NCBI RefSeq assembly: GCF_006345805.1
Contig: NC_043001.1
Coordinates: 92,690,001 to 92,754,000 of the forward strand
Length of the DNA: 64,000 nucleotides
From: Octopus sinensis
Taxonomy: Eukaryota
Direction: 5' to 3'
In this document: in pieces, positions 7,477 to 57,400 of the stretch
How positions within the stretch are numbered: the first letter of the stretch is position 1
Layout: every line of letters begins with the position of its first letter
Notes under the pieces: model-generated
Databases searched by the model: none
Told to the model about the DNA's origin: nothing
The model's input: only the letters and a program-made list of their open reading frames with translations
Made by a program: the position numbers and the translations under genes

Positions 7477-8721
7477 TGAGGGTAGACTGAAAAGTTCATA
7501 GACTACCTAGGAAGAAGTGAGATGTGAAATCTTGCAGGCATTAATTTCAACTCTTCTTATTTATAACTACATTGCTTTTTTCCGAGTAAACTGTAATCTG
7601 ACTGTTCAGGGAAGACTTTGTAAGTAACTAGAAACAATTCTCTTGAAAATGGACAAAATTTGGCTTCATGGTATTATTAAGAACCTGCAGAAAAATGGCT
7701 TAGCTCCCTCCCCCAATGACATTCATACTGATATAGTTACTATATTAGGATATGATGCTCCAGCTTTATCAGCAGTGCAAAGGTGGGCAGCTGAATTTAG
7801 GAAGGGATGAGAGAATTTTGAAAATGATCCAAAGTCTGGACGTCCAACAACTGCCACCACATATTCATCAAATATTGACGGATGACAAGCAATTGACTTT
7901 AAATCAAATAGCGAATGCTAGTAGTATGTCCTATGGGAGAGTAGAAAATATTGTGCACAATGAACTTAACATGAGGAAGGTTTCTGCTTGGTAGGGGCTT
8001 TGTTTTCTGACACTTGATCAAAGCACAACAGGCTGATCACATCACAGGAAAATATGGCACTGCTTCAGCCAGATTCAGCTGGTTTCTTTGAAAGTTTCCT
8101 AACCCAGGGTGAGTGTTCATCACTTTGAGTCAGAAATAGAGATAATCATGCAGTGAAAACATCCCTCCTCACTGCTCCAAAGAAGGTCATGGTCGTTTCA
8201 TCTGCAGTGAAAGTGTTGACCTAAGTGTTTTTGAATGCAAAAGGCATTGTATTTCCTGACTATCTTCAAAAGAGCCACACCATCAGTGGAGAGTACTATG
8301 CCAACTTGCTGTGGCAGTTATGAAAGGCTATCAAGACAAAAATCCCAGGAAAACTGGCAAAAGACATCTTGTTTCATCAGGACAATGCTCTAGCACACAA
8401 GCCCTTGGTTTCATTGATTGCTGTGCAAGACTGGTTTTGATCTGGTTGACCACAATCCCTATTCTAATTTGGCCCCATTTGACTGCATCTGTTACCCAAC
8501 ATGAAGAAGCACTTGGCTGGGAACCAGTATCACAGTGATAATGAAGTCATATTTGTTATTGATGACTTTTTTGATGAACAGGATGAAAGCTTCTTCACCA
8601 ATGGGGTCTAAGCACTGCAACAATGATAGAAGTGTGTGGACTATGTTACAAAATAAACCACATTTGGTCATATTCCGTGAGAGTATCTTGGTCAGACTCT
8701 GAACTTTTCAGGTGACCCTTG
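7477..8721 (+). mobile_element. mariner transposon (irritans/Himar1-like), near full length, pseudogenised transposase
   Basis: TIRs (t)gagggtagactgaaaagttca / tgaacttttcaggtgacccttg followed by TA. Transposase fragments APALSAVQRWAAEFRKG, DPKSGRP, LNMRKVSAW, FHQDNA, PYSNLAPFD, LPNMKKHLAG. Length ~1.25 kb. Confidence 0.9.
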
Positions 8722-8747: not shown

Positions 8748-10014
8748 CAGGAGTTTCAGGATACACATGACTATTTTTTATGTTGCCTTTTTTTTCAAGA
8801 ATGGCTTGATGTATTGGTGAATAGTCAATAGCATTAGAGAGTATAAAGATTAAAATTGTAATTGAGAAAAAATTGGCTGATTTGGAGGACTGGAAGCCAT
8901 CTGGATATTGGAAAAGAGTTACCTGTATCATAATGATCTGTGCAAGATTATCAAAATGCTGACATCACGACTGCTGCTCAATGCTTTGTTAACATTATAA
9001 AGAATGCAAGACATGACATGGAAAGCTGCAACAGAGACTACACAGCCGTGGCCAGCAGGAAGGGAACACAACAAGCATTTTGACTGCATCTGTATGCTGG
9101 AATTCATCCAATAACTGCAGGACAAGGTGATGGAAGAACTGATCATGGGAATCCAGGCTTTGATGAGTGAGATGGGTGTTAGAGTCACCCTTATGAAACT
9201 GACCCTAAATGTGTACCTTCAATATCACGCATAGCACAAGGGACAAATTTTGACAGCCAAGGCTAAGGGGAACCACTTAACAAGGCAAAGAAGCTCCTGA
9301 ATAAATTGAGGCATACTGCTGAGCCAGGGATGATTTGGTTCTACTCAGATGAAAAGAACTTCTGCCAAGATCAGTTATACAATACCCAGAACAACATATG
9401 GCTTACACACAAACCATGTGATGTCTCATATAATGAAAACCAAGTCCCCCCAAAGCATGATAATCTTTGGTTAGGTTTCCAGTGAGTCTAACATCATGCT
9501 ACTTCACATCTTTGAACAGGACCTTAGGCTCAATTCAGATGGTTATGTGAAGCTACTGGAGACTGTGGTAAACTTTGGTTCGTGAGGGTACTGCTGGAAG
9601 GTCATATGTGTGGCAGCAGGATTCAGCTCCTTGCTATACCTTCACTACGACTTCACTAACTCTAATTTCTGTTCTCCTAATTCACCCAATTTTAATCCCA
9701 TAGATTATTAAGTGTGGGGTGCAGTTGAGAAAGACATTGCCTGTTCTGTTTGTAACACCAAGACCAAGCTGATGGGCAAGATCAAGGAGGTGTTCGAAGA
9801 TTTTCCCAAGGGCACAGTCAGGAATACATATACCAGGTTCTGGAGAACTTTTCAGGCCACGGTGGAAGCTGAAGACAGCTACTTTTAGTAAACTGTTATC
9901 TCCCGGCCATAATCTAGTTGATATTTTTTGGTTATTTGGAATACTTTTATTTTTGGATGGAGTATTGTTCTTTTTTCTTTTTATGCAAACTGTCAAATTT
10001 ATCTGAAAACACAG
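8748..10014 (+). mobile_element. Tc1/mariner maT (DD37D-type) transposon, degenerate
   Basis: FYSDEKNFCQDQ, VWQQDSAP, SPNFNPIDY.VWG motifs. Imperfect TIRs caggagtttcaggatac / gtcaaatttatctgaaaacacag. Confidence 0.82.
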
Positions 10015-18364: not shown

Positions 18365-19230
18365 CACGATGTGGTGAATAAATTGTCATCTAAATTAAGC
18401 AAAAATGAAAATAACACTGACATCTCATTTTAACATATATTTACCAAAATTACATAAAAATATCTTCAAGTAGTAAAGAGTAAATTCATTCAATAAAATC
18501 GCCATTGGCTTCAACCATGACCTCAAGATGACTTTGGAATCTCCTGCAACTATTCTGAATGGTCTCCTTGTTGGAGAATACTGCCATAATCCTTGCCTTC
18601 AGTTCATCTTTGGTGTTACAAGAGGTTTTGTTGGTCTCTTGCTCAACTGTGCCCAACACATAATAATCAAGGGGGTTGCAATCTGGGGAGTTAGGTGGCC
18701 AGCAGTTAGGGGTGATATGGTTGCAGAAATTGTCTGACAGCTATCACTGGGTTCTCCTCCTTGTGTGGCATGGTGCAGTGTCCTGTTGCTAGATATAGGG
18801 TTTTCCAGCAGCAACCCTCTTGACCAAAGGCAGCACTACCTCTTCCAAGCACTTGAAGTAGACCTCTGTGTTGAGTCTGATGCCATTTGGGAAGATGAAT
18901 GGAGGCATAACGTCACCATCACTAGTGATCACTCCAAACACGATGATGTTGACTGAATGTTTGATCCTTATCACTCTTGATAGATGTCCTCAGACTGATA
19001 CCCAAATACTCTGAAATGTTTGTATTGGAGCTTCCGGCACAAATGCTAAACAGTACAGCATGTCATTTCCAAATTTTTGGTAAAGTGAATTACATCATGG
19101 TGCTATTTTTCTCGCAAATGCTGCCCAACTGATCCTACTATACTGTATAGTTGATGAAAATCAAAAACAAATAATGCGCATGTGCAAAATTAAAAATATA
19201 AAATGGCGACAATTTACCCATCACACTCTG
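18365..19230 (-). mobile_element. internally deleted maT/DD37D Tc1-mariner element
   Basis: TA-flanked TIRs CACGATGTGGTGAATAAATTGTC / GACAATTTACCCATCACACTCTG. ORF pieces VFGVITSDGDVMPPFIFPNGIRLNTEVY..KPYI, QQDTAPCHT, WPPNSPDCNPLDYYVLG. Confidence 0.88.
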
Positions 19231-21473: not shown

Positions 21474-21585
21474 CAAATCACATAATTCTGCTCTAGGCCT
21501 CCATTATAGGCTGGCATCCATTGCACTTTAGCTGTAAATAAACTGGTCGTTACTGTAACATTGTATGGAGCATGTGGAGTTGTCT
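21474..21585 (-). CDS. tutl: turtle/IGSF9-like exon, N-half of FN3 domain
   Basis: Acceptor ttctctttttcAG, donor TG|GTAAGC. 112 nt, phase 1 to 2. TTPHAPYNVTVTTSLFTAKVQWMPAYNGGLEQNYVI(W) resembles Turtle TQPHAPYN...LQWLPGYSGG...YTIW. Confidence 0.92.
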
Positions 21586-34450: not shown

Positions 34451-35484
34451 ATTATTATTATTATTTTGTAAAATGGTTATTTGCAATTTAATAAAAGTTA
34501 TAAATAAGCAGAGTTTTATAAAATTTGAAATTTTATAAAAGTAAAGTTATTTGGTTTCCCAGTAATAACAAACTCTAACATACCACCATAAGACAAACAG
34601 GCACACAGTTACACGTAGCACAATAAGAATCTTATATAAAGTGTACTGAGAAAGCAAAGGCAAAAGAGAATTACATTTCTATAAAATTAAGGTGATCTAG
34701 TACCTTGCTAAAAAGAGTGTGTTCATTCATTGCTATTCTTGTTTGTTTTTCTGTTTTGTTTTTTAAATAAAATCATGTATCATCACTCACTGCTCTATCA
34801 TGTAACTACACTTCATAATCTGATCTCAATACAAACAAGATAATTTCAATAAGATTTCAGTAGCCAAAAAGCAAATAATGTAAACAGAAATTTACACAAG
34901 AAAGATGTTCAGATTCACAGAAATGTGAACACGCTTCTTGATACACTAGAGTATACCACCAAATGCCCAATCATAAAAAGATAAACTTTCTAAAGAGAGA
35001 TTAAAAAACTAACAGCATGCTTTTAAACCAAACAGGAATAAATTCTCAAAGACCTTCTATTTCACTAAATTATGTTCAGGATATTTTTTAAATGTTAACT
35101 ACTTGCATCTAATAAGACATTAAAAGGTGCTCAAGTGAGAAAAGAAATGGATATGATGCACAATCATATTGTTTGTGCAGTTATATCTTTTTAGTCCTTT
35201 TCATATATCTATATATATTATATATATATATTATATATATATATATATATATATGAACAGATATCATTTAAAAAAAGGCAAAATATGACAAAAAAAAAAC
35301 AACAGGATTAAGAGTGCTGTTATTATTTCTTCATACTTTCAGTTTTAGTCAGTGCCAAACTGCATCTAAGTAAAGTGAAAGAGACCATATGAAGAGTTCA
35401 GTTCCTATAATTCACAACCATGGTAATATTTTAGATGGAGCATAAAACTGGAATGTGTAAAGAACAATGCATCATCAAACTTAC

Positions 35485-35496
35485 CTGTCTTGGGAG
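35485..35496 (-). CDS. tutl: candidate 12-nt microexon in the Ig-FN3 linker
   Basis: ttttctacctatttctattaacAG|CTCCCAAGACAG|GTAAGT: pyrimidine-rich acceptor, consensus donor, symmetric phase 1-1, no stop. Changes IE-K-TTPH to IE-TPKTE-TTPH. Confidence 0.62.
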
Positions 35497-35950
35497 CTGT
35501 TAATAGAAATAGGTAGAAAAGAACCATAGTCTGTCATTTTTTAATGTTTTTTAATGAGTAATGCTACATACCTAATTTCTTTATTTTGTTTCATATATTT
35601 AAATATTAAGGTATTTAATTTATTTATTAGTCTTTATCATTGTGCCTACTGAGTTACAATGCCTAAGTGGTTAGGGTATGGACTATGACTACATGGAATT
35701 AAGCTCAAATCTACATATATTCCCTAGGTAGAGTAAATAATTCTTGCATCAGTCAGTCTGGATGACTAAAAGGTACCTCTTTTACTTCTCTATTAAGTGA
35801 TTAAGAAAGAAAAAATAACAAGTAGAAAAAATAATAGTAAATCACTCCAACAAATATAAAATTTGCAAAAAACTTTCCATTTATGCTATCCATGAGCATA
35901 TGGATGACAAAGTGAACAAAATGAAAAAATATAAAAAAAAGCATACATAC

Positions 35951-36104
35951 TTTCAATGAGCAGTTTTGTACCAATAACAATACTAGTGATTTGGTTTGTT
36001 GCTACACATTCATAATCGCCATGGTCTGCTTTTTCAAGAAGATAGATGGTCAGGTTCCCTTTATTTTGAGAAGCTCGACTTTCCCAATCAATTTCACCAT
36101 CAAC
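35951..36104 (-). CDS. tutl: turtle/IGSF9-like exon, C-half of the Ig domain (not in the ORF track)
   Basis: Acceptor ttttctAG, donor GAAA|GTATGT. 154 nt, phase 0 to 1. VDGEIDWESRASQNKGNLTIYLLEKADHGDYECVATNQITSIVIGTKLLIE contains the D-x-G-x-Y-x-C Ig motif and continues the frame of 43143-43258. Confidence 0.92.
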
Positions 36105-38028
36105 CTAGAAAATGAGTCAATTAATAATAACCTTGTAATAACCTGAGACATACATTTGGCTACAGTGGCCCAAAGGTTCTTTACTTAGTCACTAAAATAT
36201 GTGTTGTTTCAGGAATATCATAAAAGTATACTTGAATTGATGAATACAGCTGAAAATAGATACTCTTCCTAATTCTTGATTGATGTGCCAAGCTATTCAG
36301 ATGGAAACAGATCTAGCTAACATGAACCATTAGATGGGTATGCCAATATTTACAGCAATATTAGAACCTTGAATTTTGCATTAACATCTAATAAACATAT
36401 GTAACTGAACATACTTAATGATATTGTCTAAATGTTTCAAGCTTCCTATGATTAGTGAAGGGAGTTTTCCTAAGCCTATAAGGGGTGCTGACTCCATATT
36501 TGCAATCAATGAGTCCTGATGATGATGGAACAAGATGTTAAACTGCATGAATATACGATGTTTGTAACATAAATCAACAAATCACAAATATACCATATAT
36601 TTCTCCACTTAAATATGAACATACTGAATACCTAAAACCAAATAAATTGCAGGCTATTACCAAACAATCAGAATCAGATAGAAGGTAGCCAAATATCAAA
36701 ACACAGATCATAAAAGATATCAAAAGGTAAGTCTATAATAAGTTAGGCAAAATATATTGAAATTAATCTCCTAAGTAAGGTAATGTCAGTGTTCTTTTTA
36801 TGGCATAATTTAAAAGCCCAAGAAATAACTGTTTTTTTATTTTAATGTTTTGTTTTTTAAACACTTTTCTCTTTTTATGTTAATAAACTAAGCCACATTA
36901 TCATTTCTATCCATTTAGGCGAAACAATAATGAGATTCTTGTTGTTATACTCACTAAGTTTTACTGAAATTGCTAACAATATCCTTTGAATAGAGACTAC
37001 TTGAATAGCAAACTAGATAAATCATGCTATGTTACTAAACTTCAATCATTCATTCAACACACTTGTTAGAGATGCAAAAATTATCAGCTATTTATGATAA
37101 ATTACTTATATCTTTAGGAAAAATGTAAGTACATATTGAAATTTTCAATCCTGGATACATTAAAATTTAAAAAAAAGGAAATTATTTTGATTACAAAAAT
37201 AAACAGATCAATAAATGAATATGACACAAATACAAAAGCAATAACTACAGAAAACAGGTAATAAATATATTTACAAAATATTTGAGCATCCTCAGCATAT
37301 AACTCATGTTTACTAATAGACAACATAAAGATTCAAAAGATCACTTGAACATATCTCCAAATCACAACAAAATGCAACTAAATAAAAGAAATGCTATCAC
37401 TTACTGTAAAAGCCCTCAACTTAATGACTATATCAAAGTACAAAATACCAACACAAGATGACATTATATACATAAAACATATAGCAACAATAAAGAGAGC
37501 TTATATACACTGTGTAATTACAAAACAGAACAGAAAAGCTTCAGTGTACTAAAATACCTGAATAAGAGCCTTAGAAAAATTTTTTATGGAACCAAAAACC
37601 TCACGATATAAAGGTGTAATAAGAGCAATAATTAAATGGAAAATTGAGGTAAGCTAATCATAGTACCCTCTCAAATTACACTCCAATAAAGCAGTAAAAA
37701 CCAAGCCATGGAGGATGCTTCACAATATGAAATTATGAAACCTGTACATATATGCAACAAATAGCATTTAAATGTCAATAGGACATGATAGCATACTTGA
37801 AACTTAAGTATTCATAAATCAGCAATAGAATGCACATTAATATAATGAATATATACACAGGATGATGGAAAGTATAAGCACTAATTTCAGAGGGAAAAAT
37901 GGAAACAATCCATTGATGGTACCTAAAGTACATAGCATTTGTAGGGTGATGTGTTACTGATTACATTGCAGTGTGTCTGCATTCCATTTCATCAAATCAG
38001 ATGCTATGACTAGTTTATGCTATTTGAA

Positions 38029-43142: not shown

Positions 43143-43258
43143 CTTCCGCCATGTGATTTCTGGTTTTGGTGTTCCTTCAGCATCACATGGTATAGTTATT
43201 GAGTTGCCTGCCACCGACTGGTATATCGGCTTTGGACGGATTGTGAAGTATGGTGGAT
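43143..43258 (-). CDS. tutl: turtle/IGSF9-like adhesion molecule, exon encoding N-half of Ig domain (Ig5-equivalent)
   Basis: Acceptor ctacccttctAG, donor AAG|GTTTGT. 116 nt, phase 1 to 0. Translates (x)PPYFTIRPKPIYQSVAGNSITIPCDAEGTPKPEITWRK with the Ig B-strand Cys and C-strand Trp; resembles Drosophila Turtle PPAFTVEPETLYQRKVGDSVEMHCDA (recalled). Confidence 0.9.
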
Positions 43259-54419: not shown

Positions 54420-57400
54420 GTTGCTTGAAATTTTCATATGATGTAAAATAATAGTGGTGATGACAATGGTAATGAATGTTACCTTACCTCAGTTTATGAG
54501 AGACAGGAGTTACAGAAAAACTCTGGTTGAAACAGCAAAAATTAAGCTGGGACTTTAAGGGAAGGCCTCTCATTTGGCAATGGTTCAGTAAAGATGCAGA
54601 CTGACCACAGCTGTTATGCTAATACAGTAACAGCAAACAATAAAGCAAGGAGGAGAAAGTGGACCAGCAAAGAAAACAGGATAGTGGTTCAGTGCTACTT
54701 AGAAAGTGAACCTTCTTTGATGTTAACACTTTGGGTAGAGAAGGGTATGTTTAAAGTGACTGAGCAGAGATTAGCTGATCAAGCTAATACTATTAGGAGA
54801 AGAAAGTGGATGACAGAATTGGGGGTAGAAGAGATCACAAGACAACTGGAAAAGAAAGACCAAGCAGTGGGAAAGACAAATAACAGCTCAAACCAAAGAA
54901 GAACCTAAAGGAAAAAATAATAATAGCACTACCAATAAGAAAAGGACAACTGGCACCAAAGTGATTTAAGTGAGGAAGATCAGAAGATTTTAGATGAGTT
55001 GCAGGAAGTAATAAGTAAAGAAGGAAGGGAAAGACTGCCAGCATTAAAAGGTACCAACAGAAGGAAGCTGCCAGAAATGACTAGGAAAATAGATTCTATT
55101 ATCGGTAGGGTAGATACTAAAAATATAGGAGACACTAACTTATTGATCTATGCAAGATTAGATACGTCGTTGGAAAAGATTTAAAAAGAGCAAATATGGA
55201 AAAGAAGACTACAAAATAAAGTGAAGACTTCTAAGACAAGATCTGAGTAGAAAAGAAGCCTGGAAAACAAACAAGTTAGGAAACACAAGATACAGATCTT
55301 GCCTCGAGGAAAGATGATACTTAGTCACAGAGAAAGGATTTGGAACAGTAATAGAAGAGTTGAAACTGCATATCATAGCAGTAGCAGGCAAGCTCTCCAG
55401 ATATCAGAAAAGAATAGATCAATATCAACAGAATAGATTGTTTGAGACAGACCAGAGATTTTATAACCAAATAAACAGAGGAGAACAAAGTACTCAAGAT
55501 GAGAAACCTAATGCAGAAGAAGCTAGAAAGTTCTGGAGTAATATTTGGGATAAGCCAGTCAATCATAGTGGAGATGCAGTATGGTTAAAGAAAGCAAAGG
55601 AAGAAATAGTGAGTGGAAGCAGCCAGATCTGAGATTAACTAGTACATTAATGAGTGAAGTGTAGGAAAAAATGCCAAAATGCCAAATTGGAAGGGCCCAG
55701 GACCAGAGTTAGTTCAAGGGTATCAACTAAAGAAATTCAGTAGTTTACATGAGAGGCTGAGGGAACAACTTCAGGAATACTTTAATGGAGGAATAATACC
55801 AGTTTGGATGACTAGCTAGCAACAATAGACCAATCACTTGCTTACCATTAGTGTGGAAGCTGTTAACAGGAAAGCATTTACAAGCACCTTCACAACCAGA
55901 ATTTACTACAAGAACAGAAAGGTTGCAGGAAGAAGGCTAGAGGAATGCATGATCTATTATATATAGACAAAGCAGTTCTAAATGAAGTAAAAGCTAGAAA
56001 GTATAATGTAAAAATAGCATGGATAGATTATAGGAAAGTCTATGACACGATTCCACACTCATGGATAAATGAATGTTTGCGTATATTAAGTATAGCAGAC
56101 AAAATAAGAGTATCAATTAGCTGTAATATAAAGAAACAGAAAGTAGATCTCTATTCAGGTGACACACTTTTATGGAAAGTTAATATCAAAGGAGGAATTT
56201 TCCAGGGGGACTCATTGCTCCCTTTAATATTTGTCTTATGTTTGATCCCCTTCAGTTTAGTATTAAGGAAGGCAAAGGCAGGGTATCAGTTCAGAAATAG
56301 TAACGGCAACATTAACCATTTGCTCTACATGGATGATCTGAAACTTTTTAGTAAGAACTAGATTTATTACTCAGCGTTGCTTGGTGGAGTATTCATGGAA
56401 TTGTTTGCCAGTTTGTAGAATGGGAATTCATGGTACTTATGCATGTATATATATTTAACCTAACTTCTGGACTTATTTAATTGGAACTGAATGACGTGTT
56501 TTTGTTTTTCTTTCTTAGAAAGTTACAAAATGTCAACATTCGTACCGGAAGTTGACTCATTTAATGTCAGAATAGGATTTACAGAAAAAATAAGGGCTTA
56601 AATCTAATCAAAAGTAAGAGAAATTATGCCAAATACAACTAAATTGAAAACGTTTTACCCCTGGCCATATTGGCAATTCTGAAAACTTCTGTGTGCGAAT
56701 TTTTACATGGGTAGAAGCCTTTTTTTAACAATTTTTATCCTGGAAATCACCTGTGACTTTTGTTTTAAAGTGAAAGAGAGGAGCAAATGAAAGATGTATG
56801 AACGTGTATATGAAATGGACATGTGTGTGTGTGTGTTACAGTGAGAGAGAAAGAGAGAGAGTGCCACTTACAAATACATGAGAACACACATGTTCATTCA
56901 CAAACTCTCTCTCTCTCTTTCACACACATTCATGTCCATTTCATATACACATACATACACCTTTCACTTTAAAACAAAAGTAAATAAATAAAATATTTTT
57001 ACGGAAATTAATGAACTCCAGATGATGAAATCACATTGTTAAAAATATTTTTAAATGATTAAAATATTGTGTATGTCAAAAGTCAACTATTTCTGAGATT
57101 AAGTGTGTGTATATGTCATAGATAGTAGACCCGTGTTCATGTTGATTGAACGCCATGACATTCATTATATGTGTGCGTATTCTGCATGTGTTGACATCAA
57201 GGAAACCATATTTTTATTGTCAAGAAATAACAAACAAAAATTGTGTTTAATCATTTAAATAGAGGTCCAAATATCACAAAACTTTGTACTGTACTGCCGA
57301 AGGTATGAAAATAAATATGCAAAAACAATCAAGATAAAATATACTATTTCTGAGATATTTTGGGGAACACACAAACATCTTTAGAGTTTTAGTATTACTG

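Follow-up and report, generated by a model that had tools for sequence, protein, structure and literature searches.

A RefSeq-annotated 12-nt microexon, skipped in assembled transcripts, as a candidate hinge spacer of octopus turtle/IGSF9

A 12-nt exon at the junction of two domains of an adhesion protein raises the question of whether it is a regulated cassette that alters the geometry of the protein or a recently born exon that is merely tolerated there. We addressed this question for a locus of Octopus sinensis, within a stretch of 64,000 nt that we call the window and to which all coordinates refer unless stated otherwise. A sequence-only reading had placed an in-frame microexon at the Ig-FN3 hinge of turtle/IGSF9 and had seen in it a possibly unannotated splice code for Turtle adhesion in cephalopod neurons.

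The peptide of the Ig5 exon is a 100% match to the Octopus proteins of LOC115211947 and LOC106876426, and the best homologs of the Ig5-FN3 region carry the name protein turtle (Mytilus, Haliotis and Lingula). Ig and fn3 domains were found by Pfam in the protein of the host gene, and a second FN3 repeat and a hydrophobic segment were read from its sequence. By these features, the gene has the architecture of the Turtle/Dasm1/IgSF9 proteins, described in part of PMC2959082 as five Ig domains, two FN3 repeats, one transmembrane segment and a cytoplasmic tail; the same part of that paper presents Turtle as known chiefly from neurons. Four turtle coding exons flank the microexon inside the window and the remainder of the gene lies beyond it. 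The features are, in the order of transcription:

43143..43258, minus strand: turtle exon, first half of Ig5 (sequence; ends of spliced contigs)
35951..36104, minus strand: turtle exon, second half of Ig5, with phase-1 donor AAA/GTATGT (spliced contigs in 8/8 runs, one partial)
35497..35536, minus strand: 3′ splice-site region with branch-point-like TGAC at -40, AG-free zone, pyrimidine tract and CAG acceptor, no UGC (sequence)
35485..35496, minus strand: cassette microexon, 12 nt, phase 1 (sequence; TPKTE in RefSeq XP_036358844/5/6)
35479..35484, minus strand: donor GTAAGT, in the context CAG/GTAAGT (sequence; single occurrence on both window strands)
21474..21585, minus strand: turtle exon, first half of FN3-1 (TTPHAPY...), to which the Ig5 exon is spliced straight when the microexon is skipped (sequence; contig ends)
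14586..14764, minus strand: turtle exon, second half of FN3-1 (sequence)

The turtle introns also hold short open frames (55318-56358 (+), 7628-7991 (+), 18489-18989 (-) and 9712-9885 (+)), which we take, by motif, to be broken fragments of non-LTR reverse transcriptase and mariner/Tc1-type transposase.

The microexon, CTCCCAAGACAG on the minus strand (35496..35485), was read from the window sequence as 12 nt in frame, with its acceptor AG at 35498-35497 and its donor GTAAGT starting at 35484. It is separated from the donor of the Ig5 exon (exon end 35951, phase 1) by an upstream intron of 454 nt, and from the FN3 exon, which starts at 21585, by a downstream intron of about 13.9 kb. The acceptor is preceded by a 32-nt AG-exclusion zone with 80% pyrimidine at -30..-5 and by a TGAC at -40, the putative branch point being assigned from this motif alone. 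Microexons range from 3 to 27 nt, and with 12 nt, AG/GT sites, phases 1-1 and an open frame the exon has the properties of one. Its inclusion changes the hinge from E-K-TTPHAP to E-TPKTE-TTPHAP, and both peptides occur in database proteins. The position, tract, donor and phase thus read as had been claimed, and the replacement of K by TPKTE, a gain of 4 aa in the linker, is borne out by the database peptides, as are the gene and the hinge position by the Pfam domains and the turtle-named homologs. The absence of UGC from the tract was also confirmed: no TGC, TCTC or CTCT is present in the 150 nt upstream of the acceptor.

The splice architecture exceeds chance. We applied a strict filter, chosen post hoc with the site already seen: YAG, an AG-free zone of at least 20 nt, at least 70% pyrimidine, length of 3-27 nt and a multiple of 3, open phase 1 and AG/GTAAGT. 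The microexon is its sole sense-strand match in 64 kb, with no match in antisense and none in 300 block-shuffled introns. When the donor was relaxed to GTRAG, 16/300 shuffles and one antisense site got through. CAG/GTAAGT itself occurs once in the window, counting both strands, and this single occurrence is the microexon donor; no other splice signals of this kind in the window are as good. A repeat origin of the region was considered and set aside, as a search of the O. sinensis genome that skips common words returned the self-match and no second copy.

The suggestion that the exon was unannotated did not hold. TPKTE is present in all three O. sinensis RefSeq models retrieved (XP_036358844.1, XP_036358845.1 and XP_036358846.1, LOC115211947 X1-X3, in a 13-member protein cluster), which are labelled uncharacterized, and there was no skip-form model of this species among those retrieved. 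The microexon is therefore already annotated in RefSeq, where it is not presented as alternative. The transcripts give the complementary picture. We examined contigs assembled over 35330-36200 in 8 of the 24 listed runs, for which tissue is unlabelled. In 7/7 runs bridging the junction (6 studies, 3 organisms), the Ig5 exon is joined directly to the FN3 exon; the eighth, run X24, ends before the junction. The inclusion form was found in 0/7 of the bridging assembled runs, in which contigs lose minor forms and give no inclusion level. Of the two junctions that the earlier reading had set against each other, the skip junction was thus recovered throughout, and the inclusion junction is seen through the RefSeq models alone.

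Besides a skip contig of depth 33, run X13 yielded an unspliced contig of 203 nt (35405-35607, depth 4, one differing letter) that has the microexon at its centre, with both splice sites, the rest of the examined intron stretch being uncovered. This unspliced contig may represent pre-mRNA, DNA or slow splicing near the microexon. As X13 has both a skip contig and a piece carrying the intact microexon, skipping takes place where the exon is intact. Altogether, skipping is demonstrated in the assemblies and looks dominant in those samples. The inclusion recorded in RefSeq very probably derives from transcript alignments, since annotation pipelines and gene finders are not known to predict exons of 12 nt by themselves and no close homolog carrying the insert was retrieved. 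What is shown here is the skipping; RefSeq had listed the exon itself before, so that the finding is of limited novelty. We found no literature on this microexon, on LOC115211947, on individual cephalopod microexons or on a Turtle/IGSF9 microexon, in a search that covers subscription papers thinly. The preprint 10.64898/2026.09.05.749416 covers O. bimaculoides among its species and does not mention turtle in its text, and no match was found in the supplements examined of PMC9699675, a long-read isoform annotation.

How unusual is a longer hinge in this family? We compared 124 retrieved Turtle/IGSF9 proteins that align at a score above 200, a further 103 being excluded as hinge-less or lower-scoring. 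The Cys-to-Trp spacing across the hinge equals the skip-form length in 117/124 (55/58 from the first searches, 52/56 of the 50%-identity representatives and 10/10 later members), and the short hinge is found in bivalves, gastropods, a brachiopod, an annelid, a tick, Drosophila, a hemichordate and vertebrates. This uniform spacing indicates that the skip form has the ancestral hinge length and that the hinge is strongly constrained. The seven deviants are the three O. sinensis models, a single model from a fish, carrying LHQG, and three odd spacings (-1, +1 and +26) that look like model errors and were not retained as true hinge variants. TPKTE itself is confined to 3/124 sequences from one species. 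The remaining 12-13 cephalopod hinge proteins all have the skip form (O. bimaculoides X1-X5 and an older model, O. vulgaris, Argonauta hians and 5 Logan proteins), and the insert is absent from every mollusc or lophotrochozoan protein retrieved outside O. sinensis, although the protein level is a poor test for microexons. Microexons are frequently missed by annotation, so that the absence of the insert from the proteins of other species is weak evidence. Judged from these proteins, the microexon is probably restricted to Octopus. A metagenome scan for related loci gave 414 pattern matches, none of which was confirmed.

The fish model, KAK1800674.1 (igsf9a of Electrophorus voltai), has four residues, LHQG, at the same Ig5-FN3 hinge. 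We did not retain it as support: it is a hypothetical protein in a single-member cluster, its insert has no sequence likeness to TPKTE and is absent in two related fish proteins. It probably reflects an upstream acceptor or a model error, a convergent event being possible.

The effect of the insert was modelled with AlphaFold on Ig5-FN3-1 in the skip and inclusion forms, with the same 48 homologs each. The skip model reached a mean pLDDT of 96.2, a pTM of 0.79 and a hinge-block pLDDT of 95, against 94.9, 0.61 and 78 for the inclusion model. The insert lengthens the loop between strand G of Ig5 and strand A of FN3 from 7 to 11 residues and leaves the secondary structure of both domains unchanged. 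As had been proposed from the sequence, it is thus predicted to fall between the domains. The lower pTM fits an insert that would relax a defined Ig5-FN3 angle, but it is weak evidence, as any insert absent from the alignment would cut confidence. No Turtle/IGSF9 structure was present among the 11 PDB sequence matches at E<=1e-30. When the models were searched by fold, the matches were Ig-FN3 tandems of a generic kind (NCAM2, NCAM, titin and Robo2), with TM-scores by query mostly of 0.4-0.5 and at best 0.64; they did not tell the two models apart.

Could the exon be under the control of the neural microexon machinery? Microexon programmes have been described for vertebrates and flies. In the O. 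sinensis genome, one exon passes the Pfam cut-off for SRRM_C, the eMIC domain of Srrm234, with 32.6 bits (E 3.3e-4), and the exon following it was not found within the next 10 kb:

C11337:11167-11301: exon matching SRRM_C (Pfam match)

Moreover, the Drosophila tutl exon DmeEX0009970 is listed as eMIC-sensitive (PMC8797185, table S2, seen in part); it belongs to the same gene family as the octopus exon but, at 75 nt, is too long for a microexon. In all three Drosophila proteins retrieved, the Ig5-FN3 hinge is of the short form. The SRRM_C match and the eMIC-sensitive fly exon make a neural eMIC control of the octopus microexon plausible, by analogy.

Other small cassettes were noted in the same gene. 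A 33-nt cassette (TSSNVTLVFVG) lies in the FN1-FN2 linker at contig positions 92656126-92656158, some 34 kb past window position 1; O. sinensis X1-X3 include it, and O. bimaculoides X2, Argonauta and the Logan cluster skip it. The acceptor tracts of this cassette and of the microexon have in common the 10-mer ATGGTTCTTT, of which there are just 2 sense copies and 1 antisense copy in 124 kb; spotted post hoc, it could be chance or the site of a common regulator. Further cassettes vary between FN2 and the membrane among the turtle RefSeq isoforms, outside the window, and a short alternative cytoplasmic tail occurs in one O. vulgaris and one Logan turtle protein.

Our best reading is that the microexon is a real cassette that would act as a hinge spacer in the manner of the meB exon of PTPδ. 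In full, this is a cassette skipped in 7/7 assemblies, with inclusion likely limited to certain tissues or cell types, probably neural, and predicted to loosen a fixed Ig5-FN3 hinge; we hold it tentatively, at slightly under an even chance. The main rival is a young, weakly selected exonisation, in which strong splice sites would have arisen in the O. vulgaris/sinensis lineage and the exon, included at a low or sample-dependent level, would be tolerated as an in-frame linker insert. The absence of the insert from the other cephalopod hinge proteins, and from whatever else was retrieved among lophotrochozoan proteins, speaks for it, as do its inclusion in 0/7 contigs and the missing UGC; in addition, only 3% of outgroup neural tissue-specific exons are conserved in another species, according to part of 10.64898/2026.09.05.749416. 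However, the insert is in all three O. sinensis models and not in one minor isoform, the splice signals are the best in the window, and absence from proteins says little about exons that often go unannotated. We regard exonisation as rather unlikely. Less likely again is a regulated cassette that tracks non-neural tissue, developmental stage or population under a factor other than Srrm234/eMIC. The lack of UGC and UCUC would suit it, and Turtle is best known from neurons, yet all runs assembling the junction skip the exon while the RefSeq models of one species include it. Nevertheless, the tissues of the runs are unlabelled, and UGC is found in just 74-79% of SRRM3/4-dependent microexons (part of 10.1101/2024.09.17.613571).

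Two further explanations are, in our view, very improbable. A gene-model artefact, in which RefSeq misaligned an exon that is never spliced in, would agree with the absence of read-level inclusion from the assemblies examined, but reads over the skip junction could not have supplied the exon's first 7 bases, no close homolog able to guide a protein alignment was retrieved, and the splice signals are above chance. The other explanation is recursive splicing. Ratchet points take the form of a pyrimidine tract ending in CAG/GTAAGT, and the tract here could serve the AG just before GTAAGT. Excision of the 14.4-kb intron would then take two steps, with the 12-nt exon as a by-product of using the first AG. 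Mature RNA would then appear skipped, as in the 7/7 contigs. However, the first AG past the tract is the microexon acceptor, and such a site would take out just 0.47 kb of the 14.4 kb.

Under the preferred reading of a conditional hinge spacer, the very short exon, with its long AG-free 3′ site and strong donor, would be skipped by default and included only under certain conditions; that inclusion is regulated and enriched in neurons seems to us evenly balanced. Inclusion would provide a longer Thr/Pro-rich linker, predicted from the models to loosen Ig5 on FN3-1. It is possible, if doubtful, that this spacer changes how far, or at what angle, the five Ig domains extend above the membrane, and that it thereby tunes the geometry of adhesion, as opposed to creating a new binding surface. 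A more speculative and unlikely extension is that a turtle exon without UGC was independently drawn into an octopus neural microexon programme, where it would release an Ig5-FN3 hinge whose length is constant throughout bilaterians, and forms, with the 33-nt FN1-FN2 cassette and those between FN2 and the membrane, a combinatorial code of stalk geometry setting the reach and angle of Turtle by neuron type, in parallel to the eMIC-sensitive exon of fly tutl. If the exon is neural and functional, it offers a PCR-testable target for eMIC-type splicing that tunes adhesion proteins in octopus neurons, at a hinge otherwise fixed in the family; a young exon with weak inclusion would be an ordinary case of exon birth. 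For the fly protein, the requirement mapped for Turtle-Borderless binding is the distal Ig1 of Borderless, as given in part of PMC5442652.

Like the neural microexons under eMIC/SRRM3/4, the octopus exon is very short and frame-preserving, with a long AG-exclusion zone, a pyrimidine tract and a branch-point-like motif. Fly eMIC targets are described as having long AG-exclusion zones, UGC by the acceptor, UCUC-rich tracts and strong branch points (PMC8797185, in part). The octopus exon differs from them by lacking UGC and UCUC, by its consensus-strong donor as opposed to the weak donors of the fly targets, and by a TGAC at -40 that departs from the fly CUAAY branch-point consensus (same source). 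UGC is, however, not strictly needed by SRRM3/4-dependent microexons (10.1101/2024.09.17.613571, in part).

The precedent at the level of the protein is the meB exon of LAR-family RPTPs. The comparison has its limits: meB (ELRE) is inserted between Ig2 and Ig3, two domains that each contact the ligand, whereas the octopus insert lies at the membrane-proximal Ig5-FN3 junction of a protein of a different family; meB is found in most brain PTPδ transcripts and has measured effects on affinity, whereas the octopus insert is seen in the O. sinensis models alone (for meB, part of PMC4423211). Nonetheless, both inserts add four residues where two domains of an Ig/FN3 adhesion protein meet, and in PTPδ meB works as a length-dependent and largely sequence-independent linker for which other tetrapeptides can substitute (PMC4423211, in part), which is the type of spacer that we propose for octopus Turtle.
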